Under the pieces are notes generated by a model. The model worked only from the letters and a program-made list of their open reading frames with translations, was not told the origin of the DNA and searched no databases. A program made the position numbers and the translations under genes. Positions 18,964-35,779 of a DNA stretch of 64,000 nt are shown here, piece by piece. The stretch spans positions 17,613 through 81,612 of the forward strand of contig CAZVQU010000003.1 in assembly GCA_964629655.1 (NCBI GenBank), given 5' to 3'. How positions within the stretch are numbered: the first letter of the stretch is position 1; each line of letters begins with the position of its first letter. This stretch comes from an uncultured Planctomycetia bacterium (GTDB lineage: Bacteria; Omnitrophota; Gorgyraeia; Duberdicusellales; 4484-171).

Positions 18964-18991
18964 TTGACAAATGATACCAAACTGGTATCAT
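18964..18991 (+). promoter_or_regulatory. Promoter TTGACA-16-TATCAT with embedded palindromic operator GATACCA-aac-TGGTATC (copy 1)
   Basis: cccTTGACAaatGATACCAaacTGGTATCATc. Near-identical copy at 25028-25055. Probable TSS about 18998, so the GT2 gene (ATG 19001) would be leaderless. Confidence 0.45.
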
Positions 18992-19000
18992 CTCTACAAG

Positions 19001-19672
19001 ATGATTTCCTGCATAATTCCTGTTTATAACGAAGAAAAGCTGATAGGGAGGACTCTTGATAATCTTTCTAGGTTTGAGGGCCTTGAAATCATTGTCGTCG
19101 ATGGCGGTAGCAGCGATCGCTCTCGCGATATTATCAATAGCCACCCAGTAACTTTAATTTCTTCTCCCAAGGGACGATCACATCAGATGAATGCTGGTGC
19201 CGGAGTAGCCAAAGGTAACATCTTATTATTTTTACACGCAGATTGCATTCTTGAGCCGGATGCCCTAGGGGCAGTAAACGAGGCGATTAGTCAGGGGTCA
19301 GTAGGAGGATGCTTTATCCACAAAATAAATGGGAAGGGCATCTTATATCGCAGCATTGAACTTTCCGGGAATATCCGTACAAAAATTTCAAAGGTATTTT
19401 ATGGCGATCAAGGTATATTCGTCAGCAAGGATGCTTTTTCAAAAATTGGCGGTTTTGATAGTGTGGTTTTATTTGAAGATGTTATTTTTTCCCGGAAGCT
19501 TAAAAAAGTAGGTAAAGTTTGTGTATTAAATAGTAAAGTTTATGCTGAGCCCAGGCGGTGGAAGACCCAAGGTATAGTAAAAGCTACGCTAATAAATTGG
19601 CTAGTAACGATAGGGTTTATCTTTGGTATTCCTACAAAAATATTAAGTAAAGTCTATTGCGATATTCGATAA
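19001..19672 (+). CDS. Family-2 glycosyltransferase (TIGR04283-like)
   Basis: MISCIIPVYNEEKLIGRTLDNL...IIVVDGGSSDRS, GT-A fold with DxD-like motif. Start moved to ATG 19001 because track ATG 18971 lies inside the operator palindrome. Confidence 0.7.
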   Translation: MISCIIPVYNEEKLIGRTLDNLSRFEGLEIIVVDGGSSDRSRDIINSHPVTLISSPKGRSHQMNAGAGVAKGNILLFLHADCILEPDALGAVNEAISQGSVGGCFIHKINGKGILYRSIELSGNIRTKISKVFYGDQGIFVSKDAFSKIGGFDSVVLFEDVIFSRKLKKVGKVCVLNSKVYAEPRRWKTQGIVKATLINWLVTIGFIFGIPTKILSKVYCDIR

Positions 19673-19731
19673 GTAGGGATATTATTTTAGTGGTACAGGC
19701 AAGAGGTTATTAATGATGGTAACCGAGGAGG

Positions 19732-20226
19732 TTGACAATGATGCCCACACCAGAAGAAATTCGTGACATGGAGCATAAACATATAAATTTAAGTTATAAT
19801 AAGATTGAAGAATTAATTTATGCCGGAAACAATATGTGTTGTCAAACTCATTTTGAAAAGGAGTTGTTATCTAAAGGTATCACTGTCGATATATCCTTGG
19901 AGCTGGAAAAATTTGATAACCCTAAAGGGGTAAAATATTTTTTTTGGTTTCCTTGGAAGGAGGATACAGCCCCGAGTGAGGAGTTAATAGAAATTGGTTT
20001 AAAAACTGTCGATAATTTAATTGAAAAAAATATTAAAATGTATATTCATTGTAAGAATGGGCATGGGAGGACTACCACATTTTTAGCGGCATATTTTATT
20101 AAGACCAAAGGCGTAACGGCAGACGAAGCGCTTAAGTTAGTGACGGAGAAGAGGCCATCTATGCATCTCAATGAAACCCAGATATCTTTTTTAAGAGAAT
20201 TTGAAAGAATTGGGAAGGTTTCATGA
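19732..20226 (+). CDS. Dual-specificity / protein-tyrosine phosphatase-like protein (HCxxGxxRT P-loop)
   Basis: IHCKNGHGRTTTFLAAYF = HCX5R(S/T) signature. Confidence 0.6.
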   Translation: MTMMPTPEEIRDMEHKHINLSYNKIEELIYAGNNMCCQTHFEKELLSKGITVDISLELEKFDNPKGVKYFFWFPWKEDTAPSEELIEIGLKTVDNLIEKNIKMYIHCKNGHGRTTTFLAAYFIKTKGVTADEALKLVTEKRPSMHLNETQISFLREFERIGKVS

Positions 20227-21647
20227 AATATGATTATGACTTGGTTGTAATCGGCGGTGGTGCCGGGGGGCTGTTTGCTGCCAGTGTTGCCAATACTTTG
20301 GGAGCTAAAACCTGCCTTATCGAGAAGAAACGCTTAGGCGGTGATTGTACCTGGTTTGGCTGTATGCCTTCAAAAGCAATTTTAAAGTCGGCAAGTTTGG
20401 TGAGGTTGCTTAAAAGGTCTTCTGGCTTTGGTTTAGGGGTTGATTACAAGATAGATGCCTCAGGAGTTATGAATCATGTTAGGGATGTTGTTAGGGAAAT
20501 TTCGACACATCATCCGATAGAGCTATTAGAGAAGAGAGGAATAACCGTTATAATTGGCCAGCCACATTTTATTGGTAAGGATTCATTAGAAGTTAATAGC
20601 AAGATAATAAGAGCCAAGAAATTTATTATTTGTACCGGCTCACATCCAGTTATCCCTCCGATTGATGGTTTAGCTGAGATAAATTATCTAACTAATGAGA
20701 ATATTTTTGACTTAAAGGAGCTTCCAAAGAGCTTGATTGTTTTAGGTGGCGGTCCTATTGGTGTCGAGCTATCGCAGGCTTTAGGTCGCTTAGGTGTCAA
20801 GGTTTCAATTGTTGAGATGGTCGATAAGCTTTTGTTTCATGAAGAAGCAGAGGCTAGTCTTATATTGGAGGAAGCATTAAAATCCGAGGGCTTAAGTATT
20901 TTTACCGGAAAAAAAGCAGTTAAGTTTAGCAAGAAAGAGAATAAAGTTTTTGTAACTTTGCAGGATAAGGGCAATAGGAGGAAAGAGATATCTGCGGATA
21001 ACGTATTGGTTGCTGTAGGCAGGGCAGCAAATCTAGAAGGCCTTATGCTTGAGGTAGCTGGAGTAGAATACACCAACAAGGGTATTAAAGTTAATGCTTA
21101 TTTGCGGGCGAAAAACCCCAATATACTTGCCTGCGGAGATATCGTCGGGCCTTATATGTTTAGCCACGTTGCGGCTTATCAGGCTAGCGTATGCGTACGC
21201 AATGCTTTATTTAGAAGAATAGCTTGGCAGAAGGTCAGCTATGATAATATTGCCTGGGCTACATTTACTGATCCTGAAGTAGCTCATCTGGGGCTGAGTG
21301 AAGAAGAGGCCAGGGGTAAGTTTAAAAATATAAAAATATATAAGACTGACTATAGCGCTTGTGACCGGGCAATAACAGATTCTGAAAAGAAAGGTTTAGT
21401 TAAGATCATTACCAATAAAAAAGGATATATTCTAGGCGCTAATATTGTTGGTGCTAATGCCGGTGAAATAATCCAGGGTTTGCTTATTGCAAAATCTCTA
21501 AAGCAGCCATTAGCAAGGATTGCCTCGGTATTATTTATTTATCCTACTCTCTCGGAATTAATCAAAAAGACTGCGGCAAAAAGTTTGGTTGAGAAGATTA
21601 GTAATCCTTTTATTAAGTTTGTTTTGAAAGTGTTGAGGAAGAGTTAA
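20223..21647 (+). CDS. Pyridine nucleotide-disulfide oxidoreductase (dihydrolipoamide dehydrogenase / mercuric reductase family)
   Basis: N-terminal FAD site DLVVIGGGAGG, redox-active GGDCTWFGCMPSK, NAD site VLGGGPIGVE, C-terminal dimerisation domain. 4-nt overlap with upstream gene. Confidence 0.75.
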   Translation: MKYDYDLVVIGGGAGGLFAASVANTLGAKTCLIEKKRLGGDCTWFGCMPSKAILKSASLVRLLKRSSGFGLGVDYKIDASGVMNHVRDVVREISTHHPIELLEKRGITVIIGQPHFIGKDSLEVNSKIIRAKKFIICTGSHPVIPPIDGLAEINYLTNENIFDLKELPKSLIVLGGGPIGVELSQALGRLGVKVSIVEMVDKLLFHEEAEASLILEEALKSEGLSIFTGKKAVKFSKKENKVFVTLQDKGNRRKEISADNVLVAVGRAANLEGLMLEVAGVEYTNKGIKVNAYLRAKNPNILACGDIVGPYMFSHVAAYQASVCVRNALFRRIAWQKVSYDNIAWATFTDPEVAHLGLSEEEARGKFKNIKIYKTDYSACDRAITDSEKKGLVKIITNKKGYILGANIVGANAGEIIQGLLIAKSLKQPLARIASVLFIYPTLSELIKKTAAKSLVEKISNPFIKFVLKVLRKS

Positions 21648-21658
21648 GGAGAGCCTTA

Positions 21659-22321
21659 GTGAAGTTTTTAAAAAGCCCTTGGTTTAAGGTTTTATTTATC
21701 GTTTCCATTATCGGAGCAGTGTTTTTTATCCTACGCTTCCTTGGCATTAACTTCTCAGGAGTCAGCGCTGAGGAGGTTAAAGCTTGGGTTGAATCCTTGG
21801 GTTTCTGGGGACCGGCGATTTACATTATTGCTTATGTCTTTCGTCCTTTAGTTTTGCTGCCGGCTGCCATATTTTCAGCATCAGCGGGTGTAATTTGGGG
21901 CTTAAAGGGATTTATTTATGTTCAAATCGGAGCTAATATATCTGCTGTTGCTGAGTTTTTGATAGCCCGTTACTTTGCCCGTGAATTAGTTGAGAAATAT
22001 TTAAAGGGTAAAATTTCCCGGGTTGACGAGAGCATTGAAAAGCATGGTTTTTTAACTGTTTTATTAGTGAGGCTTATCCCTAATCTACCCTGGGACGTCC
22101 AAAACCTAAGTCTAGGCTTAACTAAGGTAAGGTTTAGAGATTACTTTTTTGCAACTCTGATTGGGATTATGCCGGCATCGTTTGCTTTAGTCTACGGCGG
22201 CGATGCTATTATAAAGGTATTAACTGATCCTAAGAATTTTTGGATGATTATCCTTGCGGTATTAATCTTTATCGGTGTATTTTTTCTCCAGAAGTATTTA
22301 AAGCGTAAAAATACAAAATGA
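21659..22321 (+). CDS. DedA / TVP38-TMEM64 family membrane protein
   Basis: VLLVRLIPNLPWDVQNLSLGLTKVRFRDYFFATLIGIMPASF is the DedA/SNARE-associated signature. GTG start with RBS. Confidence 0.7.
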   Translation: MKFLKSPWFKVLFIVSIIGAVFFILRFLGINFSGVSAEEVKAWVESLGFWGPAIYIIAYVFRPLVLLPAAIFSASAGVIWGLKGFIYVQIGANISAVAEFLIARYFARELVEKYLKGKISRVDESIEKHGFLTVLLVRLIPNLPWDVQNLSLGLTKVRFRDYFFATLIGIMPASFALVYGGDAIIKVLTDPKNFWMIILAVLIFIGVFFLQKYLKRKNTK

Positions 22322-22336
22322 ATGAGGAGGTCTTGA

Positions 22337-24388
22337 ATGCATGCTTTTTTAAGTCTTCTAGAAAAACATAACGCCCAAACTTTCTTAAACCGCGGGAAGT
22401 TAACTACTCTGCAGGTTAACGTCGGCAACCTTTGTAATCAAAGTTGCCTTCATTGTCACATAGAAGCTTCTCCCCAAGGAAAAAATATTATGCCTAAGGA
22501 GATAATCAATGATGTTCTAAAATTCCTTCATCATCATGAGATTAAGACCTTAGATATAACCGGGGGTGCCCCCGAACTTAATTCTGATTTTGATTACTTT
22601 ATACGTTCGGCTCGTCCCTTAGTAGGAGAAATCATTGTTCGTTCGAATTTAACTGTATTTTTTGAGCCAGGTAAAGAATACTTGCCCCAATTCTTGAAGG
22701 AAAATAAAATTCACCTTATTTGCTCCCTGCCTTGCTATGCCCGGGATAATGTTGATTACCAGAGAGGTAAAGGCGCTTTTGATAAGAGCGTTAAAGCCTT
22801 GAGGATACTAAACGGGTTAGGTTTTTCAAGTAAGGAAGATTTACTTCTCGACTTAGTCTACAATCCCAGAGGCCCCAATCTTCCGGCTGAGCAGGGAAAG
22901 CTTGAGAGGGATTATAAGAGTAATTTAGAGGAAAATTACCAAATAAAGTTTAACCATTTAATTACTATAACTAATGTTCCGATAAAGCGATTTAAAGATT
23001 ACTTGGAGAAAAAGGGAGAATACAAAAAATACTTTAAGCTTCTCCAAGACAATTTCAATCCTGTTATTTTGGATAATCTTATGTGCCGTAATTTCTTAAG
23101 TGTTGGTTTCAACGGCCGATTGTATGACTGCGATTTTAACCAAACTCTAGGCTTAGCCCTAAAAGACGAACTTGGAAACTTTCTTACCTTAGATAAAGTG
23201 TGCCTTAAGAATCTTGAGGGTAGGGAAATAATCCTTGGTGAGCATTGTTTATCGTGTACAGCTGGCAGCGGTTCAAGCTGTCAAGGGGCATTAACTGGAA
23301 AGAATTCCCCCAAGAAAGCGGTTAATCCTTGCTGTCTTGATGGGGAGGAAGATAAAAAGGAGAGCGTACGTGAGTATTACGGTAAAGTTTTAAAAAGCAG
23401 TAAGGATTTAAAAACCAATGCCTGCTGCAATGGGGAATCTATGCCGAAAGCTTACAGGAACGTACTAAATAAAATTGAACCGGAAATTTTAACCAAGTTT
23501 TATGGCTGCGGTTCTCCGTTACCGCCATTACTCCAAGGGTGCAGGGTTTTAGACTTAGGCTGTGGCAGTGGTCGCGATGTTTATTTGGCTTCATTTCTTG
23601 TTGGCCAAGATGGTTTTGTTATTGGAGTGGATATGACTGATCAGCAAATAGATGTAGCCACAAAATATAAAGATGCCCAGATGAGGGCGTTTGGGTTTAA
23701 AAAGAACAATGTTGATTTCAAAAAAGGCTGTATCGAGAACTTAAAAAATCTAGGCATTGCTGATAATTCGATCGATGTTGTGATTTCCAATTGCGTAATA
23801 AATTTATCACCGGATAAGGAGAGAGTGTTTGCAGAGATTTTTAGAGTCCTAAAGCCCGGTGGTGAGCTATATTTTTCTGATGTATTCGCAGGAAGAAGAG
23901 TGCCCAAATTTCTTAAAGACGATCCCATCCTCTACGGAGAGTGCCTAGGTGGAGCCTTGTACATAGAGGATTTCAGAAGGATTTTAAGGCATTTAGGCTG
24001 TTTAGACTATAGGGTTATTTCAAAGAGTCAAATTAACTTTGACAATAAAGAACTGGAAGAAAAATCCGGTATGATTAGTTTTTATTCAATGACTATAAGG
24101 GCCTTTAAGTTGAAAAAGCTAGAGGATATTTGTGAGGATTACGGACAGATGGTGACATATCTGGGGACAATCTCTGACTCAATCCACAAATTTGTCCTTG
24201 ACGATCATCATACTTTTGTTTCTGGAAAACCAGAACTTGTTTGCGGCAATACTGCCTCTATGTTGTCTAAAACACGCTACGCCAATCACTTTAAAGTGAT
24301 TGGAAACAGAACTACTCACTATGGCCCTTTTAATTGTGGGCCGCTCTCAGAAAAATCTCAGGATTCTTTTGGTGGGAGGTGTTGCTAA
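22337..24388 (+). CDS. Fusion protein: ArsS-like radical SAM/Cys-rich domain (N) + ArsM-like As(III) SAM methyltransferase (C)
   Basis: N-half: VNVGNLCNQSCLHCHIE (CxxxCxxC) plus Cys-rich tail CLSCTAGSGSSCQGA. C-half: CCNGES...YGCGSP...VLDLGCGSGRDVYLAS...DGFVIGVDMTDQQ...LKPGGELYFSD, matching ArsM motif I/post-I and conserved Cys positions. Confidence 0.7.
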   Translation: MHAFLSLLEKHNAQTFLNRGKLTTLQVNVGNLCNQSCLHCHIEASPQGKNIMPKEIINDVLKFLHHHEIKTLDITGGAPELNSDFDYFIRSARPLVGEIIVRSNLTVFFEPGKEYLPQFLKENKIHLICSLPCYARDNVDYQRGKGAFDKSVKALRILNGLGFSSKEDLLLDLVYNPRGPNLPAEQGKLERDYKSNLEENYQIKFNHLITITNVPIKRFKDYLEKKGEYKKYFKLLQDNFNPVILDNLMCRNFLSVGFNGRLYDCDFNQTLGLALKDELGNFLTLDKVCLKNLEGREIILGEHCLSCTAGSGSSCQGALTGKNSPKKAVNPCCLDGEEDKKESVREYYGKVLKSSKDLKTNACCNGESMPKAYRNVLNKIEPEILTKFYGCGSPLPPLLQGCRVLDLGCGSGRDVYLASFLVGQDGFVIGVDMTDQQIDVATKYKDAQMRAFGFKKNNVDFKKGCIENLKNLGIADNSIDVVISNCVINLSPDKERVFAEIFRVLKPGGELYFSDVFAGRRVPKFLKDDPILYGECLGGALYIEDFRRILRHLGCLDYRVISKSQINFDNKELEEKSGMISFYSMTIRAFKLKKLEDICEDYGQMVTYLGTISDSIHKFVLDDHHTFVSGKPELVCGNTASMLSKTRYANHFKVIGNRTTHYGPFNCGPLSEKSQDSFGGRCC

Positions 24389-24400
24389 GGGCAGGCAGCG

Positions 24401-25018
24401 ATGGATAAGTTGACGGGCAATGCACTTATAGTATTCCTTAAATACCCTCAACCGGGATTAGTTAAGACTCGCTTAGCAAAAGATATCGGTCCAGAATCTG
24501 CAGCTCTGCTATATAAAGAGCTAACTGAGTTAATCCTAAAGAATACCGAACCAGGTGATTACCAACGATTTTTATTTTACACACCGCAAGAGAAAAAACC
24601 TGAAATTTCAAAATGGCTAGGAGAAGATTCTAAACTTTTTCCTCAAGAAGGAGATGATTTAGGAAAAAGGCTGGCTAATGCTTTTGAGTCAGTCTTTAAC
24701 AAGGGGGTGAGTAAAGCGGTTGTTATCGGAACTGATAGCCCTTTTATTGACAGAGAGATTGTTGAGGAAGCATTCCGGCAGTTGGATAAATTCCAATGCG
24801 TTATCGGTCCGACTTGCGATGGCGGTTATTATTTGCTTGGTCTTGGTTCAGATAATGCCAAGCTATTTGAAAGCATAGATTGGAGTAGCAGTAGAGTATT
24901 TGAGCAGACAAAACAGAAGTTTAAGGATTTAGGATTAAGCTCGACTTGCCTTAGGGAAGAGTTTGACGTTGACACAAGAGCTGATTTAGACAGGTTTTTA
25001 AGAGATAAAAAAGTTTGA
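24401..25018 (+). CDS. DUF2064 / TIGR04282-family putative glycosyltransferase
   Basis: GNALIVFLKYPQPGLVKTRLAKDIG...VVIGTDSPFID...GPTCDGGYYLLGL, the DUF2064 signature. Confidence 0.65.
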   Translation: MDKLTGNALIVFLKYPQPGLVKTRLAKDIGPESAALLYKELTELILKNTEPGDYQRFLFYTPQEKKPEISKWLGEDSKLFPQEGDDLGKRLANAFESVFNKGVSKAVVIGTDSPFIDREIVEEAFRQLDKFQCVIGPTCDGGYYLLGLGSDNAKLFESIDWSSSRVFEQTKQKFKDLGLSSTCLREEFDVDTRADLDRFLRDKKV

Positions 25019-25027
25019 AATTAACCC

Positions 25028-25055
25028 TTGACAAATGATACCAATATGGTATCCT
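25028..25055 (+). promoter_or_regulatory. Promoter TTGACA-16-TATCCT with embedded palindromic operator GATACCA-ata-TGGTATC (copy 2)
   Basis: cccTTGACAaatGATACCAataTGGTATCCTt. 36/40 nt identical to 18961-19000. Confidence 0.45.
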
Positions 25056-25221: not shown

Positions 25222-25623
25222 ATGAATTTAATTACCCGAGATGTTGACTATGCCATAAGAGCCTTATGCTGCATTGCGAAAAGAGAGGAAGGAGTCTACT
25301 CGGTTAATGAAATAGCCAAGTATTTAAAAATTCCTCGTCCTTTTTTGCGAAAAATTTTGCAAGTGTTAGGTAAAAAAAATATAGTGCATTCTTATAAAGG
25401 CAAAGGCGGAGGATTTAGATTGGCGGCTAAGCCGGGCAAGATTTCATTATTTGATATAATTACTTCGTTTCAGGGTCCGATAAGGTTAAATGATCATACT
25501 TTTAAGAGAAAAGTATGTCCTCATTTGAAGGAGTGTAATGTTAAGAAGAAACTTGATCGAGCAGAGAGAGTTATGGTTTCAGAATTAAAAGGGATCACCA
25601 TAGCGAATATTATCGAACATTAA
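25222..25623 (+). CDS. Rrf2-family transcriptional regulator (IscR/NsrR-like)
   Basis: DVDYAIRALCCIAKREEGVYSVNEIAKYLKIPRPFLRKILQVLGKKNIVHSYKGKGGGFRLA is the Rrf2 wHTH. C-terminal CPHLKEC. Confidence 0.75.
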   Translation: MNLITRDVDYAIRALCCIAKREEGVYSVNEIAKYLKIPRPFLRKILQVLGKKNIVHSYKGKGGGFRLAAKPGKISLFDIITSFQGPIRLNDHTFKRKVCPHLKECNVKKKLDRAERVMVSELKGITIANIIEH

Positions 25624-25637
25624 AAAGAAGAGTTATT

Positions 25638-26462
25638 ATGGCAAAACGTAAAATAATAAAAATTGATGAGAAGAAGTGTAACGGCTGTGGCCTTTGTGTG
25701 CCAAATTGTCCTGAGGGAGCTTTGCAGATTATTGACGGTAAGGCTCGGTTAGTCGGTGAGCTCTTGTGTGATGGCTTGGGTGCTTGTATTGGAGAATGTC
25801 CCGAAGGTGCTATTATTGTTGAGGAGCGTCAAGCCCAGGAGTACAACGAAGATAAGGTTATGGAAAATGTATCTAAGGCTGGGCCTGAGGTAATCGCAGC
25901 TCACTTAAAGCATCTTAAAGATCATGATCAGGATGATTATCTAAAACAGGCTTATGAGTACTTAAGAAAGTGCAAAATCGATATTCCCAAGGAAGAGGCA
26001 TCTGATGAATTGCCTTGTGGTTGTCCAGGTACAATGATGCGTGATTTTCGCAGTGAGAAAAAAGCTGACACAAAGGTTTCTACCGTAAGTGAGAGTTCTC
26101 AATTGCAGCAATGGCCGATACAGTTGCAGCTAGTCAGTCCAGTAGCTTCCTACTTTAAAGATGCTGATTTAGTGATTGCTGCTGACTGTGTACCTTTTTC
26201 CTACCCGAATTTTCATCAGCGGTTTTTGAAAGGTAAGGCCCTTGTAATTTTTTGCCCCAAGCTGGATACGGTATTAGATATGTATGTTGAGAAATTAACG
26301 GCAATTTTAAGGGAGAACAATATAAAATCAATAACCATTGCGCATATGGAGGTTCCTTGTTGTTTTGGCCTGGTAACTTTGGTGCAGAAGGCATTAAAAA
26401 AATCAGGGAAAAATATTATAATTAAAGAATATACAATCTCGGTTAAGGGTGAGCTCGTATAG
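25638..26462 (+). CDS. 4Fe-4S dicluster ferredoxin-domain protein with Cys-containing C-terminal domain
   Basis: CNGCGLCVPNCPEG...CDGLGACIGECPEG, two CxxCxxCxxxCP motifs. C-terminal PCGCPG...FCPKLD...PCCFGL. Confidence 0.55.
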   Translation: MAKRKIIKIDEKKCNGCGLCVPNCPEGALQIIDGKARLVGELLCDGLGACIGECPEGAIIVEERQAQEYNEDKVMENVSKAGPEVIAAHLKHLKDHDQDDYLKQAYEYLRKCKIDIPKEEASDELPCGCPGTMMRDFRSEKKADTKVSTVSESSQLQQWPIQLQLVSPVASYFKDADLVIAADCVPFSYPNFHQRFLKGKALVIFCPKLDTVLDMYVEKLTAILRENNIKSITIAHMEVPCCFGLVTLVQKALKKSGKNIIIKEYTISVKGELV

Positions 26463-26486
26463 TCTTTTTAAAGAAAGGAGTGGGTT

Positions 26487-27011
26487 ATGGATAAAAGCTT
26501 AGAGAAAGTGATGAATGAGCAATTAACAAAGGAGCTTTACTCAGCATATCTGTATCTTTCAATGGCTGCTTATTTTGAATCTGAGAATCTATCCGGATTC
26601 AGTCATTGGATGAAAATGCAGGTTCAGGAAGAGGTTCTGCATGCAATGAAAATCTTTGACTTCTTAAGTGGACGCGGCAGCAGAGTTGTTTTAGAGGCGA
26701 TAGATAAACCCTTGGCAAAATTCTCCTCGATTAAGGATGTTTTTGAGAAGACTTTAAAGCATGAGAAAAAAGTTACTGCAAGTATAAATGATTTGTATGC
26801 TCTAGCTAAGAAAGTTAACGATAGAGCCTCTTGCGTTTTTCTGCAGTGGTTTATTACTGAGCAGGTTGAGGAGGAAAAGAATCCTGCAGATATCTTGGGT
26901 AAGCTAAAGTATGTTAGCGATCAACCGGCAGGCATATTAATACTTGATAAAGAGCTGGCTACCCGTCGGCAACCGGTTTTAGATCCCGGCACGGAAGCAG
27001 CTGGTGCTTAG
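26487..27011 (+). CDS. Ferritin (non-haem, Ftn-like)
   Basis: MNEQLTKELYSAYLYLSMAAYFE...MKMQVQEEVLHAMKIFDFL ferroxidase-centre pattern. Confidence 0.8.
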   Translation: MDKSLEKVMNEQLTKELYSAYLYLSMAAYFESENLSGFSHWMKMQVQEEVLHAMKIFDFLSGRGSRVVLEAIDKPLAKFSSIKDVFEKTLKHEKKVTASINDLYALAKKVNDRASCVFLQWFITEQVEEEKNPADILGKLKYVSDQPAGILILDKELATRRQPVLDPGTEAAGA

Positions 27012-27049
27012 ATTGTGAAGGGATAGTTTCGCCTAAGTAAGGAGGTATA

Positions 27050-27184
27050 ATGACTATGCGAAAGAAAAAAAAGGCAAAATCAATGGTATGCGTAATTTGT
27101 AAAGGAGATAAGAAAGTCCAGGGTAAAAAGAAGTGTTGTTCTCCCGGAATGACTTCAAAGAAAAAGGGTAGCTGGAACCTTTAG
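27050..27184 (+). CDS. Small basic Cys-rich peptide (44 aa)
   Basis: MTMRKKKKAKSMVCVICKGDKKVQGKKKCCSPGMTSKKKGSWNL. SD AAGGAGG immediately upstream. Unlisted in track (<60 aa). Confidence 0.3.
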   Translation: MTMRKKKKAKSMVCVICKGDKKVQGKKKCCSPGMTSKKKGSWNL

Positions 27185-27231
27185 GAGCTATTTTTTAAAA
27201 GTTTGCTATTAGAAAAAGGAGAGTTATAAGT

Positions 27232-28878
27232 ATGTTTTGTTATCAATGCCAGGAAACGATTAAAAATACAGGGTGTACAAAAATTGGTGCTTGCGGAAAG
27301 GCTGAGCCGATAGCGAATTTACAAGATTTATTAGTATATGTTTTAAAAGGCCTATCTATCGTTGGAATTAAAACAAAAGATAAAGGTACTTTAGATAAAA
27401 AATATGGACGATTTATTTCCAAGGCTTTATTTGCAACAATAACTAATGCTAATTTTGACGATGCTAGAATAATTAGCTTAATTAAAGAGGCAATTATCTT
27501 AAGGGATGAGTTAAAAAGTAATTGTGAGACATGTAGTAGTGGTGAGGTTCATGATTCGGTAAGCTGGGGAGCAGACAGGGAAGAAGAATTTATTGAAAAA
27601 GCTAAACATATTGGAGTTCTATCTACTGAGAATGAAGATACTAGGTCATTAAGAGAGCTTCTTATTTATGGGGCAAAAGGAATAGCCGCATATGCTGATC
27701 ATGCAGCTGTTCTAGGTAAAGAAAATGACTTGATTTATGATTTCTTAATCGGGGCATTAGAGTCTACTACAGGAGATTTGTCAGTAGATGAGATGGTCGC
27801 TTTAGTCTTAAAAGCCGGGGAGTTTGCAGTTACTACTATGGCTTTGTTAGATGAAGCTAATACTGCCGCCTACGGTAATCCTGAGATAACTAAAGTTAAT
27901 ATCGGGGTCAGAAGTAATCCTGGCATACTTATCTCCGGACATGATCTTAAAGATATGGAAATATTGCTCAAGCAAACTGAAGGTGCTGGTGTGGATGTTT
28001 ATACCCATTCTGAGATGCTACCGGCAAATTACTATCCAAAATTTAAGAACTATGAGCATTTTGTAGGAAATTATGGCAATTCTTGGTGGAAGCAGCAAGT
28101 TGAGTTTGAGTCTTTCAACGGTCCGATTTTAATGACTACAAATTGTATTACTCCGGTTAAAGATTCTTACAAAGACAGGATTTTTACTACCGGTATGGCA
28201 GGTTATCCGGGAGTCAAACACATACCTGATTGCAATAATGGTCAGGGAAAAGATTTTTCAGAAATAATTGAATTGGCAAAACGATGCCAACCACCAAAAC
28301 AAATTGAAACCGGAGAAATAGTCGGTGGTTTTGCCCACAATCAGGTGCTTTCTTTGGCTGAGAAGGTGGTAGAGGCAATTAAGACAGGAGCAATAAAACA
28401 GTTTATCGTTATGGCTGGTTGCGATGGTCGAGGAGCTTCGAGAAGCTATTTCACCGAGGTTGCTGAAAAGTTACCTAAAGACACAGTAATTCTCACAGCC
28501 GGTTGTGCTAAGTATCGTTATAACAAACTGAGCCTTGGTGATATTGGCGGTATTCCCCGAGTACTTGATGCCGGACAGTGTAATGATTCTTATTCTTTAG
28601 CAGTTGTAGCCTTAAAATTAAAAGAAGTTTTTGGCATGAAGGATATCAATGAGTTGCCAATTTCCTTTGACATCGCCTGGTATGAGCAAAAAGCAGTAGC
28701 AGTTCTTCTGGCCCTTTTATCTTTGGGGGTAAAGGGAATCAGGTTAGGCCCAACACTGCCGGCATTTCTCTCCCCCAATGTGTTAAATGTTTTGGTTGAG
28801 AAGTTTGATATTAAACCGATTGCAGACGCCAAGAGTGATGTTAGCACAATGGTCAAAGGAGCAGGGGTGGCAAAATAA
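27232..28878 (+). CDS. hcp: Hydroxylamine reductase / hybrid-cluster protein
   Basis: [24 protein letters not shown]-terminal Cys motif and full-length (548 aa) Hcp architecture. Confidence 0.9.
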
Positions 28879-28888
28879 GTTTATCACA

Positions 28889-29599
28889 ATGAAGGAAACT
28901 CGGGTAACATTTAGCGAAAGGATAAAGAGAACTGCCACCATTGAGAGTTTTCGATTTAGGCCTGAAGAGAAAATAGATTTTTTACCTGGACAATTCCTTC
29001 AACTTATCTTTGATCAAGAAAATAGGAATAACTCCGATCTAAATAAATACCTTTCTTTTTCCTCAGCTCCCGATAAGGAGTGCTTTGAAGTAACTAAAAG
29101 AATGTCTGGTAGTGAATTCTCTCAAGCCCTAGCTAAGCTAAAAACAGGTGATAGATTTTTGATCAAGGCTCCGATGGGAAATTGTATTTTCAAAGATGAA
29201 TATAAAAAAATCGGATTTCTGGTTGGCGGAATTGGTATAACCCCGGTTATTTCAATACTAGAATATATTACAGGCAAAAATCTTGATACTGACGTCTGTT
29301 TGTTGTATTCTAATAGAACTGAGGAAGAAATAGCTTTTAAGGATGAGATCGATAGCTGGAGCCAGCAAAACCCAAATATTAATCCGGTATATGCCATTAC
29401 TAATTGCGCGCCGAAAGATAGGAAGTGTTTTTTCGGGACAATCGATGGACAATTCTTAATTGATAATATTTGTGATCCTAAGCAGCGAATTTTCTTTATT
29501 TTTGGACCACCAAACATGGTAGCATCGATGAAAAATATTTGTCTTGAAATTGGCTGCGTTAACGATATGGTAAAAGTAGAGAATTTTATTGGTTATTAA
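28889..29599 (+). CDS. FAD/NAD(P)-binding oxidoreductase (ferredoxin-NADP reductase-like; possible Hcp reductase partner)
   Basis: RFRPEEKIDFLPGQFLQL (FAD site) and GFLVGGIGITPVISIL (NAD site). Start set to ATG 28889 after hcp stop. Track start 28787 overlaps hcp. Confidence 0.6.
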   Translation: MKETRVTFSERIKRTATIESFRFRPEEKIDFLPGQFLQLIFDQENRNNSDLNKYLSFSSAPDKECFEVTKRMSGSEFSQALAKLKTGDRFLIKAPMGNCIFKDEYKKIGFLVGGIGITPVISILEYITGKNLDTDVCLLYSNRTEEEIAFKDEIDSWSQQNPNINPVYAITNCAPKDRKCFFGTIDGQFLIDNICDPKQRIFFIFGPPNMVASMKNICLEIGCVNDMVKVENFIGY

Positions 29600-29610
29600 G
29601 GAGGTAAGAG

Positions 29611-29751
29611 GTGAAAAAGTATATATGCATGGTTTGTCAGTACATTTATGATCCGTCTGAAAATGACAATATTGAATTTGCTCATCTGCCTGACGATTGG
29701 GTTTGCCCTGAGTGTGGAGTGGGGAAAGATCAGTTTGAGGAGGTTGAATAG
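29611..29751 (+). CDS. Rubredoxin
   Basis: (M)[14 protein letters not shown]...[16 protein letters not shown], canonical CxxC...CPxC rubredoxin. GTG start after AAGGAGG. Not in ORF track (46 aa). Confidence 0.8.
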
Positions 29752-29765
29752 GGGGGTTGATCTAA

Positions 29766-30926
29766 ATGAAGGCAGTTGAGATCAAAAAAAATATTTATTG
29801 GGTAGGAGGCATCGACCAGGGTTTAAAAGACTTTCATGGCTATTTAACCCAACGCGGAAGCACTTACAATGCCTACTTAATTATTGATGAAAAAATAGTA
29901 CTCGTTGATACGGTCAAGCACTATCTTTATGATGAGATGCTGGCCAGAATAAAAAGTGTCATAGATCCGGCTAAAATCGATTACATTATATCTAATCATA
30001 CCGAGATGGATCACTCCGGATGCTTGCCAAAGATTACCAAGGTTGCCAGCAAAGCCACAGTAATAGCTTCCCCTAATGGCCAGAAGGGATTAAAAAAGCA
30101 CTTTGAAGAAGAATTTATTTTTAAGATTGTTAATAGCGGTGATTCAATTAATATTGGTAAAAGAAATCTACAATTTGTGCTTACTCCCATGGTTCACTGG
30201 CCAGATTCTATGGTCACCTGCGTCCGGGAAGATAAGTTACTGCTTTCTAACGATGCTTTTGGCCAACATATTGCTTCTCGGGAGCGCTTTGATGATGAGC
30301 TTGGTTTAGATATAGCTATGCAAGAAGCTACTAAATATTACGCTAATATAGTTCTTCCCTTTGGGGTGCAAGTTAAAAAAGCTCTAGAAGCTTTATCGGG
30401 ATTGGAAATTGACATGATTGGCCCTAGTCATGGTATTATTTGGCGCAAATATATAAGTGAAATCATTAAGAAATATAAAAGTTGGGCCGATAATACCATT
30501 GCAGAAAAAGCTGTAGTCGTTTATGATACAATGTGGGGTTCGACCGAAAGGATAGCTAAGACAATTTCTAATGTTTTTATCAATAAAGGTATTCCAACAG
30601 AACTCTTAAATCTTAAAAAAACCCATATCTCCGATATCATGAGTCAAATTTTGACTGCTAAGTATATTTGCGTTGGCTCACCGACATTGAATAATACTAC
30701 ACTTCCTACTGTGGCAGCGTTTTTAAATTATATGCAGGGGCTTGGGCCTAAAAATAGAATTGGCTTGAGTTTTGGTTCATATGGCTGGGGTGGCCAAAGC
30801 ATTGGCCAGATGCAAGAAGTTTTAGAGACTTGTCGATTCCAATTATTAGATAGTATAAAAGTGCAGTATGTGCCGAACAAAGAGGTTTTGGCTGAGATAA
30901 CAAGTAAATTAGAGAAGGCTATCTAA
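29766..30926 (+). CDS. Flavodiiron protein (metallo-beta-lactamase + flavodoxin domains; O2/NO reductase)
   Basis: HTEMDHSG di-iron motif in N-terminal MBL domain. C-terminal flavodoxin-like VVVYDTMWGSTERIA. Confidence 0.85.
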   Translation: MKAVEIKKNIYWVGGIDQGLKDFHGYLTQRGSTYNAYLIIDEKIVLVDTVKHYLYDEMLARIKSVIDPAKIDYIISNHTEMDHSGCLPKITKVASKATVIASPNGQKGLKKHFEEEFIFKIVNSGDSINIGKRNLQFVLTPMVHWPDSMVTCVREDKLLLSNDAFGQHIASRERFDDELGLDIAMQEATKYYANIVLPFGVQVKKALEALSGLEIDMIGPSHGIIWRKYISEIIKKYKSWADNTIAEKAVVVYDTMWGSTERIAKTISNVFINKGIPTELLNLKKTHISDIMSQILTAKYICVGSPTLNNTTLPTVAAFLNYMQGLGPKNRIGLSFGSYGWGGQSIGQMQEVLETCRFQLLDSIKVQYVPNKEVLAEITSKLEKAI

Positions 30927-30964
30927 GGTTGGATGATAGAGGTTATAGTTTATAGAAGGAGGTA

Positions 30965-31543
30965 TTGATGAAGAGCGTAAAAGGAACGAAAACTGAGAAA
31001 AATCTATTAGCTTCTTTTGCTGGAGAGTCACAAGCCAGGAATCGCTACACTTATTTCGCCTCAGTTGCCAAAAAATCAGGCTATGAGCAGATATCAGCTA
31101 TATTCCTGGAAACAGCTGATAATGAGAAAGAACATGCTAAGAGATTTTTTAAATTCTTAGAGGGCGGCGAGGTTGAGATTGCTGCCGCTTATCCGGCAGG
31201 AGTTATTGGAAATACACTTGCTAATTTAGAGGCTGCTGCGGCCGGAGAATATTTAGAGTGGACCAAGCTTTACAAGGAGGCTGAAAATATTGCCAGAGAA
31301 GAGGGCTTTGAGCAAGTTGCTGACTTATTTAAAGAAATTGCCGGGGTAGAAGTCGAACACGAGAAGAGATACCGTAAGCTAATTGAAAATATAAAAGAAG
31401 GCAAGGTATTTGAAAGGGATGTAGTGGTCAAGTGGAAATGTCGCAATTGTGGATATGTTCATGAGGGTAAAGTTGCCCCTGAAGAGTGTCCAGCCTGCGC
31501 GCATCCGCAGAGTTTCTATGAGTTACTTTGTGAGAATTATTAA
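30965..31543 (+). CDS. Rubrerythrin
   Basis: Ferritin-like ExxH pairs (NEKEHAKRF, VEVEHEKRY) plus C-terminal rubredoxin-like WKCRNCGY...CPACAHP. Confidence 0.85.
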   Translation: MMKSVKGTKTEKNLLASFAGESQARNRYTYFASVAKKSGYEQISAIFLETADNEKEHAKRFFKFLEGGEVEIAAAYPAGVIGNTLANLEAAAAGEYLEWTKLYKEAENIAREEGFEQVADLFKEIAGVEVEHEKRYRKLIENIKEGKVFERDVVVKWKCRNCGYVHEGKVAPEECPACAHPQSFYELLCENY

Positions 31544-31573
31544 TGAGATTTTAGTCGAATTAAGGAGGTAGTT

Positions 31574-32017
31574 ATGAAGGGGCATGTCTGTAAGGTCTGT
31601 GGGTTCATATCTATAAAAGGAAACGCGCCTGATAATTGTCCGGTTTGTGGTGCCCCAAAGGCATCTTTTCTGGAGAAAGACGACGCTATAAAAGCTCCCC
31701 AAGATCCAAGCAATCTAAGCGAATTGGAAAAAAAACATATTCCAAGCATTACTGTTGTTAAAAAGTGCGGATTAATTCCTGAAGGTTGTCAGGATGTGCA
31801 TGTTAAAGTAGGCCAAATCCAGCATCCGATGAGCCCTGAACATTATATACAGCATATCGATTTTTACATTGATAAGGAATTTATAGCAAGGGTACACTTA
31901 AGTCCCGAGAAACTTAATCCGGCAGTAGCACTTCATCTTAAAGACGGTGCAGGCAAGCTTACTGCCGTAGAATTCTGTACTGTGCATGGAGTTTGGGTTA
32001 GTGAGGCAGATTTGTAA
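31574..32017 (+). CDS. Superoxide reductase (desulfoferrodoxin-like; N-terminal CxxC...CxxC domain + SOR domain)
   Basis: CKVCGF...CPVCG N-domain. SOR ligands EKKHIP, HPMSPEHYIQH, CTVHGVW. Confidence 0.75.
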   Translation: MKGHVCKVCGFISIKGNAPDNCPVCGAPKASFLEKDDAIKAPQDPSNLSELEKKHIPSITVVKKCGLIPEGCQDVHVKVGQIQHPMSPEHYIQHIDFYIDKEFIARVHLSPEKLNPAVALHLKDGAGKLTAVEFCTVHGVWVSEADL

Positions 32018-32035
32018 TTTAACAAAGGGAGTGTA

Positions 32036-32524
32036 ATGAGAAATACTTTTAATCCTCAGGAGATAGTAAAGATTGCAATTAACATTGAGGAGAATGGCAA
32101 AAAGCTTTATCAGGATCTAGAAGCTAAGGCTAAAGATAACAAGCTAAGGGAAGTGTGGAAGTATTTAGGAGAGCAGGAAGAGATTCATCGCCAGATCTTT
32201 CAAGAGATGCTTGATAATATCGGAGAGTATATTGTTTATGAGTTTAGCCCTGGTGAGTATGAAGCTTACTTGAGGGCTATTGCTACTGAGTATATCTTTA
32301 CTCAGGAGGTAATTAGCGGGAAGGTAAAGGATGGCTTTCGCAGTGATCTTGAAGCTGTTGAGTTCGGTATATTCGTAGAAAAGGAGTCAATTCTTACTTA
32401 TTTGGCCTTGCGTGAATATGTGTTGACCGGCAAGCAGGCAGTATTGGATAAGGTTATTAATCAGGAGAAGAAACATCTGAGCGATCTTACTGGTTTAAAG
32501 AATTTTTTAAAGAAGGAGGATTAA
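32036..32524 (+). CDS. Ferritin-like / rubrerythrin-family di-iron domain protein
   Basis: 162 aa. Predicted four-helix bundle with E...ExxH-like spacing (EQEEIHRQ, EKKHLSD). Confidence 0.45.
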   Translation: MRNTFNPQEIVKIAINIEENGKKLYQDLEAKAKDNKLREVWKYLGEQEEIHRQIFQEMLDNIGEYIVYEFSPGEYEAYLRAIATEYIFTQEVISGKVKDGFRSDLEAVEFGIFVEKESILTYLALREYVLTGKQAVLDKVINQEKKHLSDLTGLKNFLKKED

Positions 32525-32758: not shown

Positions 32759-33928
32759 GTGATGACAAAAGATCCGATATGTGGGATGTCAGTCAGCGAG
32801 AAGTCTGCCTTTCAATTGTCTTGGGCTGGTGAAAACTTTTACTTTTGCAGTAAGCATTGCCTTGAGAAATTCACTGAAAAAACAAAGACTAACAGCAGCG
32901 AAATTGATGTCTGCCCAATTGTCCCGAAAGTTCCACTTTATAAGAATAAAACCTTTATTGTTGCTATAGTTCTGGCAGGATTAATTCTGCTTTCCTATTC
33001 CCTACCATTCTTAGTACCGCTTCGAAAGTCACTTATCATCTATTTTAAAGCAATCTGGTGGGCTATACTTTTAGGGTTGGCCCTTGGCGGAGCAATGGAG
33101 CACTATATACCAAAAGAATATATTACTCATATTTTATCAAAACCAAAGAAGCGGACTATTTTTTACTCAGTAATTTTAGGTTTTTTTATGAGTGTATGCT
33201 CTCACGGCATCCTTGCTCTTTCAATAGAGTTACACAAAAAAGGTGCTTCTAACCCGGCAGTGGTAAGCTTTTTGCTTGCTAGTCCTTGGGCCAATTTAAT
33301 CCTTACTGTGCTGTTGGTAGGATTTTTTGGCTTAAAAGCCCTATTTATCATATTCTCAGCTATTGTAATAGCAATAATAACTGGGTTTATCTTTCAATTT
33401 CTAGAGAGAAAGAAGCTCATCGAAACCAACGAGAATATTATAGAGATAGAAGATAATTTTTCCATTATCAAGGATATGAAGAGGAGATTTAAGACACGAC
33501 GCTGGTCTCTTAAGGGGTTCGGAGAGGATATTAAGGGAGTTTTTAACGGTGCAGTGGCCTTGAGCAATATGGTGCTTTGGTGGGTATTAATAGGTATGGG
33601 GTTAGCTGGTTTAGCTGGGGCTTACATCCCGGCTACTATATTTGCTGACTATATGGGCCCAACTATTCTAGGTCTTTTTGTTACTCTTTTGGTGGCTACA
33701 GTAATTGAGGTTTGTTCTGAGGGCTCAGCTCCGATGGCTTTTGAGATATTTAGACAGACCGGTGCCCTAGGAAATAGTTTTGTTTTTCTTATGGCTGGGG
33801 TAGTTACTGACTATACTGAGATAGGGTTGCTATGGCATAATGTTGGTAAGCGGGTAGCCATTTGGTTGCCGATTGTAACTGTTCCCCAAGTGATTATTTT
33901 AGGCATCATTGCTAATATTTTATTTTAA
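32759..33928 (+). CDS. YHS/TRASH metal-binding domain fused to DUF318-type permease (ArsP-like)
   Basis: N-terminal DPICGMSV...FYFCSKHC (YHS). Two DUF318 repeats each with a CS.G/H motif (FMSVCSHGIL, VIEVCSEGSAPMA). About 8 TM. Confidence 0.6.
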   Translation: MMTKDPICGMSVSEKSAFQLSWAGENFYFCSKHCLEKFTEKTKTNSSEIDVCPIVPKVPLYKNKTFIVAIVLAGLILLSYSLPFLVPLRKSLIIYFKAIWWAILLGLALGGAMEHYIPKEYITHILSKPKKRTIFYSVILGFFMSVCSHGILALSIELHKKGASNPAVVSFLLASPWANLILTVLLVGFFGLKALFIIFSAIVIAIITGFIFQFLERKKLIETNENIIEIEDNFSIIKDMKRRFKTRRWSLKGFGEDIKGVFNGAVALSNMVLWWVLIGMGLAGLAGAYIPATIFADYMGPTILGLFVTLLVATVIEVCSEGSAPMAFEIFRQTGALGNSFVFLMAGVVTDYTEIGLLWHNVGKRVAIWLPIVTVPQVIILGIIANILF

Positions 33929-35359: not shown

Positions 35360-35779
35360 ATGAAGAGAGTATTATTTTTATGCACCGGGAATTCTTGTCG
35401 AAGCCAAATGGCTGAAGGGTTTCTGCATCATTTAGGAGGAGATGATCTCAAAGCATTTAGTGCCGGGATTATGCCGATAGGAGTTAATTCTTTGACCATT
35501 AAGGTAATGAATGAGCTTGATGTTGATATTTCGTCTCAGCGCTCAAAATCAATAAAGGAGTTCTTGGGTCAGCAATTCGACTATGTTATTACGCTTTGTG
35601 ATAGCGCTAAAGGAGATTGCCCGATTTTTCCCGGAGAACATACGAGGTTGCATTGGGATTTAGATGATCCTGCTAGCGTTAATGGCAGCGGTGAGGAAAA
35701 AATCGCTGTCTTTAGAAGAATACGCGATCAGATCAAAAGCCATATCGAATTATTTTTAAAGGAAAACAGCACCGACTAG
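35360..35779 (+). CDS. arsC: Arsenate reductase, LMW-PTP (thioredoxin-coupled) type
   Basis: VLFLCTGNSCRSQMAEG P-loop (CX5R) plus downstream Cys (CDSAKGDC) as in Trx-dependent ArsC. Confidence 0.8.
   Translation: MKRVLFLCTGNSCRSQMAEGFLHHLGGDDLKAFSAGIMPIGVNSLTIKVMNELDVDISSQRSKSIKEFLGQQFDYVITLCDSAKGDCPIFPGEHTRLHWDLDDPASVNGSGEEKIAVFRRIRDQIKSHIELFLKENSTD

Follow-up and report, generated by a model that had tools for sequence, protein, structure and literature searches.

The closest known system to the locus described here is that of Synechocystis sp. PCC 6803, whose ArsM (slr0303; PMC4010505) and ArsS are presented, in two papers that cite Xue et al. 2019 and Cheng et al. 2021 for it (bioRxiv 10.1101/2022.09.23.509062 and PMC13598754), as the two-gene start of oxo-arsenosugar biosynthesis. 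In this cyanobacterium arsS is co-transcribed with arsM, and ArsS acts on the ArsM product (bioRxiv 10.1101/2022.09.23.509062). ArsS adds a 5'-deoxyadenosyl radical to trivalent dimethylarsenic (DMAs(III)) in a redox-neutral reaction, demonstrated for the stand-alone enzyme only, and the adenosylated product is DDMAA, 5'-deoxy-5'-dimethylarsinoyl-adenosine (PMC13598754; bioRxiv 10.64898/2026.04.29.721666); removal of adenine from DDMAA then permits further derivatisation of the ribose (bioRxiv 10.64898/2026.04.29.721666). The locus analysed here lies in a 64,000-nucleotide (nt) stretch of contig CAZVQU010000003.1 (positions 17,613 to 81,612), from an uncultured bacterium placed in the Omnitrophota; this whole stretch is referred to below as the window. 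The locus is a six-gene operon, one gene of which encodes a predicted bifunctional protein of 683 amino acids (aa) with an ArsS and an ArsM half on the same polypeptide. Judging from the sequence comparisons presented below, this chromosomal operon probably makes an adenosyl- or ribosyl-type organoarsenical by the arsenosugar pathway in an anaerobe (a reading to which we assign a probability of roughly 0.7), and its fused enzyme would be expected to convert arsenite to DDMAA.

ArsS and ArsM halves in one reading frame

The open reading frame (ORF) for the 683-aa protein is a single unbroken frame, preceded by a GAGGAGG ribosome-binding site 7 nt upstream of the ATG (Table 1). An earlier sequence-only reading of the window had proposed the fused enzyme, and the uninterrupted frame and the coordinates of the operon's six ORFs, all on the forward strand, stood as that reading had given them. 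Residues 17-319 matched TIGR04167, the NCBIfam equivalog model for ArsS, with 407.8 bits (cutoff 300, E=1e-122) over profile positions 2-303 of 303, while the runner-up radical S-adenosylmethionine (SAM) model for the N-terminal half, the Rv1681 family, scored 38.8 bits, about 370 bits below ArsS. The assignment to ArsS was thereby supported, and the possibility of a SPASM or sulfatase-maturase type of enzyme, which the sequence-only reading had named as an alternative, was not borne out. The radical SAM motif CX3CX2C reads C33-NQS-C37-LH-C40 (nt 22433-22456), and a Cys-rich DUF3641 domain (PF12345, 169.6 bits) covers residues 182-318. C315, in GSSCQG, is a cysteine at the position at which some members of this family have selenocysteine (GxxU), a motif described for TIGR04167 (PMC13188914). 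In an alignment of 125 fused homologues, C33, C37, C40, C250, C265, C304, C307 and C315 were all invariant.

The C-terminal half (residues 340-669) was matched end-to-end by phmmer to residues 23-355 of the arsenite methyltransferase CrArsM (5EVJ, E=1e-105), followed by CmArsM (4FR0/4KW7, E=3e-92) and human AS3MT (8XT7, E=2e-67). Identity to the crystallised arsenite methyltransferases was 48-50% over about 330 aa, spanning all three domains. Foldseek superposition of the predicted structure gave TM-scores (normalised to the target) of 0.93-0.95 with CrArsM, at a root-mean-square deviation of about 2 Å, and 0.90 with human AS3MT, with an overall range of 0.85-0.95 across CrArsM, CmArsM (4FR0/4FS8/6CX6) and human AS3MT (8XT7). 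In the phmmer alignment to 4kw7, C363, C391, C486 and C536 fall on C44, C72, C174 and C224 of CmArsM, and these four cysteines were likewise invariant among the fused homologues. They lie in the motifs TNAC363C, YGC391G, SNC486VINL and GEC536LGG, and the SAM-binding motif reads LDLGCGSGRD. As regards the 'CC' signature of ArsM, CC363-364 is invariant, whereas CC332-333 is unconserved and lies in a variable linker (82% gaps at these residues in the alignment). The identification of the C-terminal half as a three-domain arsenite methyltransferase is thus supported, the assignment being carried by the structure-based tests, and a non-arsenic methyltransferase, the other alternative that had been raised, was not what these comparisons returned.

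A substrate other than arsenic (antimony, selenium or tellurium) was also considered. ArsM-type enzymes are able to methylate Sb(III), and selenoproteins occur in the ArsS family and among some relatives of ArsM. There, however, selenocysteine serves as a catalytic residue and not as a substrate, and both the three-domain architecture and the four cysteines that bind As(III) match those of arsenite methyltransferases solved with As(III) bound. With arsC, ACR3 and ArsP-like genes present in the same window, a different metalloid substrate appears highly improbable.

The segment between the two halves (residues 321-340) differs in both sequence and length among the fused homologues (column identity 0.07-0.18). 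It is about 20-27 aa long, in frame and without a stop codon, and is of low confidence in an AlphaFold2 model of the fusion built from 56 homologues. That model contains two confident domains, with an overall predicted TM-score (pTM) of 0.50 and a predicted local distance difference test (pLDDT) value below 50 at residues 315-341. The last residues (665-683) also have pLDDT values below 50, and they contain a Cys-Cys pair, C682-C683, that is conserved in 98-99% of the fused homologues. Because the linker is variable and predicted to be disordered, the data argue for a flexible proximity tether with a fixed 1:1 stoichiometry of the two activities rather than a rigid tunnel; a fixed channel between the domains was not supported, nor did the model speak for or against the channelling of both steps envisaged in the sequence-only reading.

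Recurrence of the fusion in independent assemblies and other lineages

A one-base error between two neighbouring genes could mimic such a fusion, the more so as separate arsS and arsM genes lie only 15-25 nt apart in some relatives (L016-L018). An assembly or frameshift artefact, which the sequence-only reading had named as a possible refutation, can nevertheless be regarded as already refuted. The reductase gene of the operon has a database entry that is 100% identical, and the contigs on which it lies, from three separate sequencing runs (SRR24302411, -12 and -24), have the identical gene order; in two of them a fused gene of 683 aa was called, while the remaining contig ends inside that gene. 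An 89%-identical fused gene in the same operon was present in three other samples. Among 5.8 billion proteins searched there were at least 120 clusters of full-length homologues of 665-736 aa, at 59-89% identity and collinear over 96-100% of the query, in which the linker is in frame, variable in length and free of stops. Where a source was given, nearly all of these clusters were labelled Candidatus Omnitrophica/Omnitrophota, and one Elusimicrobia, and by these best-hit labels the host of the window is itself most likely an Omnitrophota bacterium; the name given by NCBI to the fused proteins is 'arsenosugar biosynthesis radical SAM protein ArsS'.

Beyond the Omnitrophota, true ArsS-ArsM fusions occur in Elusimicrobia. 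When 1.84 billion representatives (clustered at 50% identity) were searched exhaustively with HMMER and the domains of the matches mapped, such fusions were also found in metagenome-assembled genomes of Thermodesulfobacteriota and in the cultured Desulfosediminicola (WP_136805211.1, on a 6.75-Mb contig). The reverse order, ArsM-ArsS, was found in three proteins (P0121, P0123 and P0139), the last of which stands for 81 member sequences. Gene arrangement was surveyed in the loci collected earlier and in 80 metagenome loci that scored best among 561 confirmed matches. The fused gene in the order ArsS-ArsM was found in 18 loci, separate adjacent arsS and arsM genes (in either order, often 15-25 nt apart) in 16, both genes within a few kilobases in 5, and arsM alone in 49. 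A scan of genome contigs with back-translated patterns of the fused protein found only three stand-alone ArsM loci (L005-L007), all without accessory genes. Adjacent genes, two fusion orders and occurrence in several phyla together form a classical mark of enzymes that would act in one pathway, and for the same reasons it is suggested that the fusion arose more than once.

In a rival reading the protein would be mainly an arsenic detoxification methylase, its ArsM half producing volatile or exportable methylarsenicals and its ArsS-like half acting not on DMAs(III) but on trivalent monomethylarsenic (MAs(III)), As(III) or a non-arsenic substrate of the pathway of the neighbouring glycosyltransferase (GT2) and DUF2064 proteins. 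The definition of TIGR04167 long predates its link to arsenic, and many members are encoded away from arsM. Fusion partners of ArsS other than ArsM exist, a Flavin_Reduct domain being one, and other ArsS-like proteins of 450-757 aa (some of which were checked) carry unassigned N-terminal extensions; ordinary resistance genes lie 8-15 kb downstream of the operon in the window. Such a role is nonetheless very unlikely, as the occurrence of both fusion orders with a bona fide ArsM, as well as adjacent separate genes in many lineages, argues for a shared pathway, the ArsS half scores above the cutoff of an equivalog model, and the demonstrated substrate of ArsS is the product of ArsM.

Some related proteins recovered in the same searches had other architectures. 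In P0144 (Eggerthellaceae, MBQ6455134.1) a methyltransferase too divergent to be called ArsM is followed by a C-terminal ArsS. In P0126, P0129 and P0131 the radical SAM partner of a bona fide ArsM is of another kind, and both orders of the two domains occur; P0126 (Deferribacter thermophilus WP_423302845.1) was rejected as an ArsS-ArsM fusion since its radical SAM half reaches only 60 bits to TIGR04167, and in P0129 and P0131 the top radical SAM match was the Rv1681 family, below its cutoff. These three may represent a second radical SAM route to organoarsenicals. In P0182 a Flavin_Reduct domain is N-terminal to ArsS in one protein, and in L010 a separate Flavin_Reduct gene (7127-7693) lies immediately upstream of the ArsS-ArsM fusion, which makes the Flavin_Reduct protein a candidate for a dedicated electron donor to the radical SAM cluster.

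Organisation of the operon

The fused gene is the fifth of six tightly packed ORFs on the forward strand (18971-25018), in the order GT2-phosphatase-reductase-DedA-fusion-DUF2064, with intergenic gaps of 59, -4, 11, 15 and 12 nt. A gap of 203 nt separates the DUF2064 gene, the last of the operon, from the next gene, which encodes an Rrf2 regulator, and on the upstream side genes for a polyprenyl diphosphate synthase and IspH are divergent from the operon. The top sigma-70-like match (18964-18991), which agrees at 11 of 12 positions and has an extended -10 TG, spans the annotated ATG of the GT2 gene at 18971, and a weak hairpin with a T-run (25037-25053) is located just past the final stop codon of the operon. 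As the numbers of matches in the promoter and terminator scan were not above those in shuffled controls (20 versus 16±3.6; 7 versus 5.9±2.8), these sites are only suggestive of a promoter and a terminator. Translation of GT2 may instead start at Met11 (19001), possibly from a leaderless or short-leader mRNA, given that the TIGR04283 profile starts at residue 12 and that the promoter-like match overlaps the upstream ATG. For the phosphatase, the likelier start is the ATG at 19738 (162 aa according to the gene callers), with GAGGAGG 6 nt upstream.

Table 1. Features of the arsS-arsM operon and of the downstream arsenic genes in the window, with fused DedA-reductase ORFs of other loci (numbered within each locus)
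Feature	Position	Strand	Evidence
GT2 glycosyltransferase, TIGR04283	18971..19672	+	TIGR04283 227.9 bits (cutoff 182), aa 12-229; PF00535 81.8 bits
Small dual-specificity/PTP-fold phosphatase	19732..20226	+	PF00782 61.9 bits; HCKNGHGR loop
Class-I flavoprotein (pyridine-nucleotide) disulfide reductase	20223..21647	+	PF07992, PF02852, PF00070; C42-TWFG-C47
DedA/VTT (TVP38-type) integral membrane protein	21659..22321	+	PF09335 91.9 bits
683-aa bifunctional ArsS-ArsM protein (predicted)	22337..24388	+	Single ORF, Shine-Dalgarno site
ArsS radical SAM domain, aa 17-319	22385..23293	+	TIGR04167 407.8 bits; PF12345 169.6 bits
Inter-domain linker, about aa 320-339	23294..23353	+	Variable columns; pLDDT <50
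ArsM/AS3MT-type As(III) SAM methyltransferase, aa 340-669	23354..24343	+	phmmer, Foldseek, four cysteines
C-terminal Cys-Cys pair C682, C683	24380..24385	+	Kept in 98-99% of fused homologues
DUF2064/TIGR04282 protein	24401..25018	+	TIGR04282 198.1 bits (cutoff 134); PF09837 115.5 bits
ArsP_1/SO_0444-like permease	32759-33928	+	Pfam ArsP_1; NCBIfam SO_0444 Cu/Zn efflux and SaoE far below cutoff
Low-molecular-weight PTP-type arsC	35360-35779		158 bits, below 174 cutoff
ACR3 arsenite efflux gene	38811-39899	+	TIGR00832; in-frame TAA 39195-39197
DedA-reductase fused ORF, L016	5811-7955
DedA-reductase fused ORF, L051	4105-6345
DedA-reductase fused ORF, L059	3460-5655
DedA-reductase fused ORF, L068	3861-6014
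DedA-reductase fused ORF, L076	1593-3857

Accessory genes and their conservation

Both the GT2 and the DUF2064 protein scored above the curated cutoffs in the same operon as ArsS, and are thus the TIGR04283/TIGR04282 pair that had been recognised in the sequence-only reading; both families are named 'arsenosugar biosynthesis glycosyltransferase' in NCBIfam. The GT2 protein (233 aa) contains the motifs VDGGSSD and HAD (residues 89-91). The DUF2064 protein has a CofC/MobA-like nucleotidyltransferase fold, with CofC as a weak second match among the NCBIfam models, and matched PDB entry 3cgx ('putative nucleotide-diphospho-sugar transferase') at E=1.6e-32. The pair recurs in the surveyed loci (L004, L009, L011, L012, L022, L024-26, L039, L040 and L087).

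The disulfide oxidoreductase and the DedA protein were also as first read. The reductase, with its redox-active CX4C at residues 42-47, reached 459 bits against NF004991 (below the cutoff of 620), and was about equally far from the MerA, Lpd and glutathione reductase structures. MerA itself was rejected (TIGR02053, 356.7 bits against a cutoff of 454.45); the last 94 residues contain no cysteine, so the C-terminal Cys pair is missing. DedA adjoins the fusion in 13 loci (L001-4, L008, L009, L011-14, L020, L022 and L026), and five loci encode DedA and the reductase as one ORF (Table 1), located near arsS and/or arsM (in L059 near arsM only), which argues that the two function together and are part of the module. 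No NCBIfam model labels either of them an arsenosugar gene. A link of DedA to arsM/arsS may also exist in Synechocystis, as judged by locus-tag numbers: its arsM is slr0303, and slr0305 encodes a DedA/Tvp38-family membrane protein (PMC3836016).

The phosphatase carries an HCX5R active-site loop (HCKNGHGR, residues 106-113, nt 20047-20070), and in this respect the CX5R phosphatase of the sequence-only reading was correctly identified. The proposed role as an Acr2/Cdc25-like arsenate reductase did not hold and was rejected: the Pfam matches (PF00782, PF22785 and PF22784) indicate the fold of dual-specificity phosphatases (DSPs) and protein tyrosine phosphatases (PTPs), not the rhodanese fold of Acr2 and Cdc25, and the 49 PDB matches all belonged to the PTP superfamily and included neither Cdc25 nor Acr2 nor ArsC. 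These matches spanned DSP, classical PTP, PTEN, Cdc14 and PTP-like phytase, the nearest solved proteins (5z59, ShufPTP and PTPMT1) being small archaeal and bacterial PTPs together with PTPMT1. Homologues were found in the operons of L001-3, L011, L027 and L091-93, with a fragment in L009, and were absent from L004, L008 and L012; the phosphatase is thus a predicted accessory member of the module, and not a universal one.

In Omnitrophota and Elusimicrobia, the GT2, DUF2064, DedA and reductase genes flank the fusion in four gene orders. Besides that of the window, these are fusion-GT2-DUF2064-DedA-reductase (Elusimicrobia, L004), GT2-reductase-DedA-fusion (Omnitrophica, L008) and DUF2064-GT2-reductase-DedA-fusion (L009). 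Of the 39 ArsS-containing loci, 26 had one or more of these four accessory genes, as had 5 of the 49 ArsM-only loci (Fisher p=3e-8, in a test that ignores relatedness and unequal flank length).

Proposed pathway and its weighing

In the reading preferred here, the ArsM domain would bind As(III) on its conserved cysteines and methylate it twice with SAM to DMAs(III), as its strong homology to characterised enzymes implies. The ArsS domain of the same polypeptide would then, in keeping with its family membership, reductively cleave a third SAM on its [4Fe-4S] cluster and yield DDMAA. The flexible linker of about 20 aa would serve to hold the toxic, oxidation-prone and diffusible DMAs(III) near the domain that consumes it, with the two activities fixed at 1:1.

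The subsequent steps are speculative. Transfer by GT2 enzymes proceeds with inversion of configuration, and the arsenosugars found in nature are beta-ribosides. The adenine could be taken off by a housekeeping nucleosidase or phosphorylase, phosphorolysis of DDMAA giving the alpha-1-phosphate; DUF2064 might activate the arseno-ribose 1-phosphate by nucleotidyl transfer, and the inverting GT2 might transfer the arseno-ribose to an alcohol acceptor (glycerol, glycerol phosphate or a lipid) to form a beta-riboside, from which the DSP phosphatase could strip the phosphate if the acceptor was phosphorylated. As a guess, DedA and the reductase could form a membrane pair that supplies the thiol reducing power keeping arsenic or the ArsM cysteines reduced, coupled to substrate import or to product export or flipping.

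Alternatively, several of these accessory proteins could be arranged around a membrane-bound end product. With the same chemistry up to DDMAA, the acceptor for the GT2 would be a lipid or a lipid phosphate, and the phosphatase would resemble the lipid phosphatase PTPMT1. The product, flipped across the membrane by DedA, would be an arsenosugar phospholipid or a polyprenyl-linked arseno-riboside instead of a soluble arsenosugar. DedA/VTT is a conserved member of the module, and its only NCBIfam match is UptA, an undecaprenyl-phosphate transporter (30 bits, far below cutoff). Solved relatives of the GT2 include the polyprenyl-phosphate glycosyltransferases Dpm1 (5mlz), ArnC (9hwj) and GtrB-like (6yv7), PTPMT1 and PTEN are among the PDB matches of the phosphatase, and the divergent upstream genes include a polyprenyl diphosphate synthase and ispH. 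Synechocystis produces arsenolipids, according to a reference cited in PMC12159101. The similarities are, however, weak and generic for GT2, DSP and DedA proteins, nothing in the 233-aa GT2 extends past the family profile as an additional membrane anchor, and most related operons are without a DSP gene, all of which makes a membrane-bound product unlikely.

A number of observations weigh against the preferred reading, synthesis of an adenosyl- or ribosyl-type organoarsenical by way of DDMAA. The ArsM half was below the cutoff of every NCBIfam ArsM model: NF008823 (197.9 bits, cutoff 263), NF040538 (149.1, cutoff 500) and NF038099, the arsenosugar ArsM (107.1, cutoff 400). Since fused relatives that pass the ArsS cutoff likewise miss the ArsM cutoffs, these scores are read as probably reflecting an incomplete coverage of this lineage by clade-specific models and not as evidence against ArsM identity. 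The 'arsenosugar' names of TIGR04283 and TIGR04282 rest on co-occurrence. Neither the operon nor its conserved neighbourhoods encode an adenine-removing enzyme. When only loci flanked on each side by at least 5 kb were counted, accessory genes were present in 10 of 14 versus 2 of 8 (p=0.07), and one fusion locus (L010) was without any accessory gene nearby. The AlphaFold2 model shows no confident inter-domain geometry and hence lends no structural support to channelling, and the searchable literature reports arsenosugars from cyanobacteria and algae, not from anaerobes.

The ArsS-ArsM fusions, in both orders and in several phyla, provide a Rosetta-stone type of support for an ArsM to ArsS order of reactions, so far demonstrated by experiment only in a cyanobacterium, and would offer a natural single-polypeptide catalyst from arsenite to DDMAA. 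GT2, DUF2064, DedA, the reductase and sometimes the phosphatase become candidates for the later steps of arsenosugar or arsenolipid synthesis. A broader proposal is put forward only tentatively, and is itself rather doubtful: that adenosyl- or ribosyl-organoarsenical synthesis, far from being confined to cyanobacteria and algae, is widespread in anaerobic non-phototrophs of groundwater and sediment (Omnitrophota, Elusimicrobiota and Thermodesulfobacteriota), encoded by a module of six or so genes with repeated fusion in two orders and with the DedA-reductase pair as an integral part, its product being perhaps a membrane or exported arsenical with a role beyond detoxification. If the module is active, anaerobic bacteria of groundwater and sediment would be a source of complex organoarsenicals, which bears on arsenic speciation and mobility in aquifers.

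Other genes in the window

The arsC, ACR3 and ArsP-like genes placed downstream of the operon in the sequence-only reading do exist (Table 1), with arsC scoring below its cutoff and ACR3 interrupted. The two parts of ACR3 (38811-39197 and 39261-39899) are in the same frame and match TIGR00832 positions 1-103 and 119-327, the conserved cysteine motif APCTAMV falling 3' of the in-frame stop; the split gene appears to be either a pseudogene or the result of a sequencing error. Selenocysteine at this stop was rejected, as the codon is TAA and not TGA. The homologue of the ArsP_1 permease in L001 carries a YHS domain.

The region 3' of the operon (25222-32524, + strand) is syntenic with L001 (7086-14711). 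Here the Rrf2 regulator heads a conserved block encoding a 274-aa 4Fe-4S protein, ferritin, a hybrid-cluster protein, an NAD-binding reductase, flavorubredoxin, rubrerythrin and a desulfoferrodoxin-like protein, that is, predicted oxidative and nitrosative-stress defences typical of a strict anaerobe. A radical SAM enzyme of the AmmeMemoRadiSam system (2714-3811, - strand; TIGR04337, 389.5 bits, cutoff 220), also in the window, is unrelated to the operon.

Comparison with known systems

The three signature families of the operon are already named as arsenosugar biosynthesis families by NCBI, and the fused proteins are present in GenBank/RefSeq as 'ArsS'. No functional study of the TIGR04167, TIGR04283, TIGR04282 and DUF3641 families was found in the searchable literature. 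Nor was a mention of an ArsS-ArsM fusion found there, Xue 2019 and Cheng 2021 being outside its coverage, so an earlier mention is possible. As far as found in that literature, what had not been described is the bifunctional fusion in both orders and its concentration in anaerobic candidate phyla, and the DedA-reductase pair, sometimes with a DSP phosphatase, as members of the module.

For the DedA-reductase pair, the mer operon, in which a membrane transporter passes a thiophilic element on to a flavoprotein disulfide reductase, offers an analogy only: as with MerA and MerT, a CX4C disulfide reductase is encoded beside a small membrane protein, with which it is fused in relatives. Unlike MerA, the reductase of the window has neither a C-terminal Cys pair nor an NmerA domain, and DedA is unrelated to MerT. 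The ArsL-ArsM pathway to arsinothricin likewise combines a radical SAM enzyme with an ArsM-type methyltransferase, the two building an organoarsenical by way of C-S bonds of SAM that differ between them. ArsL, a radical SAM enzyme of a non-canonical type, transfers a 3-amino-3-carboxypropyl group to As(III) before methylation, whereas ArsS of the window would donate 5'-deoxyadenosyl after methylation, and the model for the arsinothricin ArsM (NF040538) scored 149 bits on the ArsM half of the window, against a cutoff of 500. CrArsM, CmArsM and human AS3MT are stand-alone enzymes, while the protein of the window carries a 320-aa N-terminal radical SAM domain and the conserved C-terminal Cys-Cys pair.

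All three members of the TIGR04167/TIGR04283/TIGR04282 'radical SAM-selenodomain associated' cassette are above their cutoffs in the operon. It differs from that cassette in having Cys rather than Sec at the GxxU position of ArsS and in carrying ArsM on the same polypeptide, and its conserved neighbourhood also includes DedA and the reductase, plus the DSP phosphatase in the clade of the window. With the ArsM and ArsS of Synechocystis, the operon shares the enzyme families, their linkage and the expected conversion of As(III) through DMAs(III) to DDMAA. In its ArsM half the fusion is nearer to the structures of algal ArsM than to 'AsSugarArsM', the cyanobacterial model of NCBIfam (107 bits, cutoff 400). 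Compared with the Synechocystis pair, the operon adds GT2, DUF2064, DedA, the flavoprotein disulfide reductase and the phosphatase, and the two proteins of the cyanobacterium correspond to a single polypeptide of 683 aa in a host that is a non-phototrophic anaerobe.

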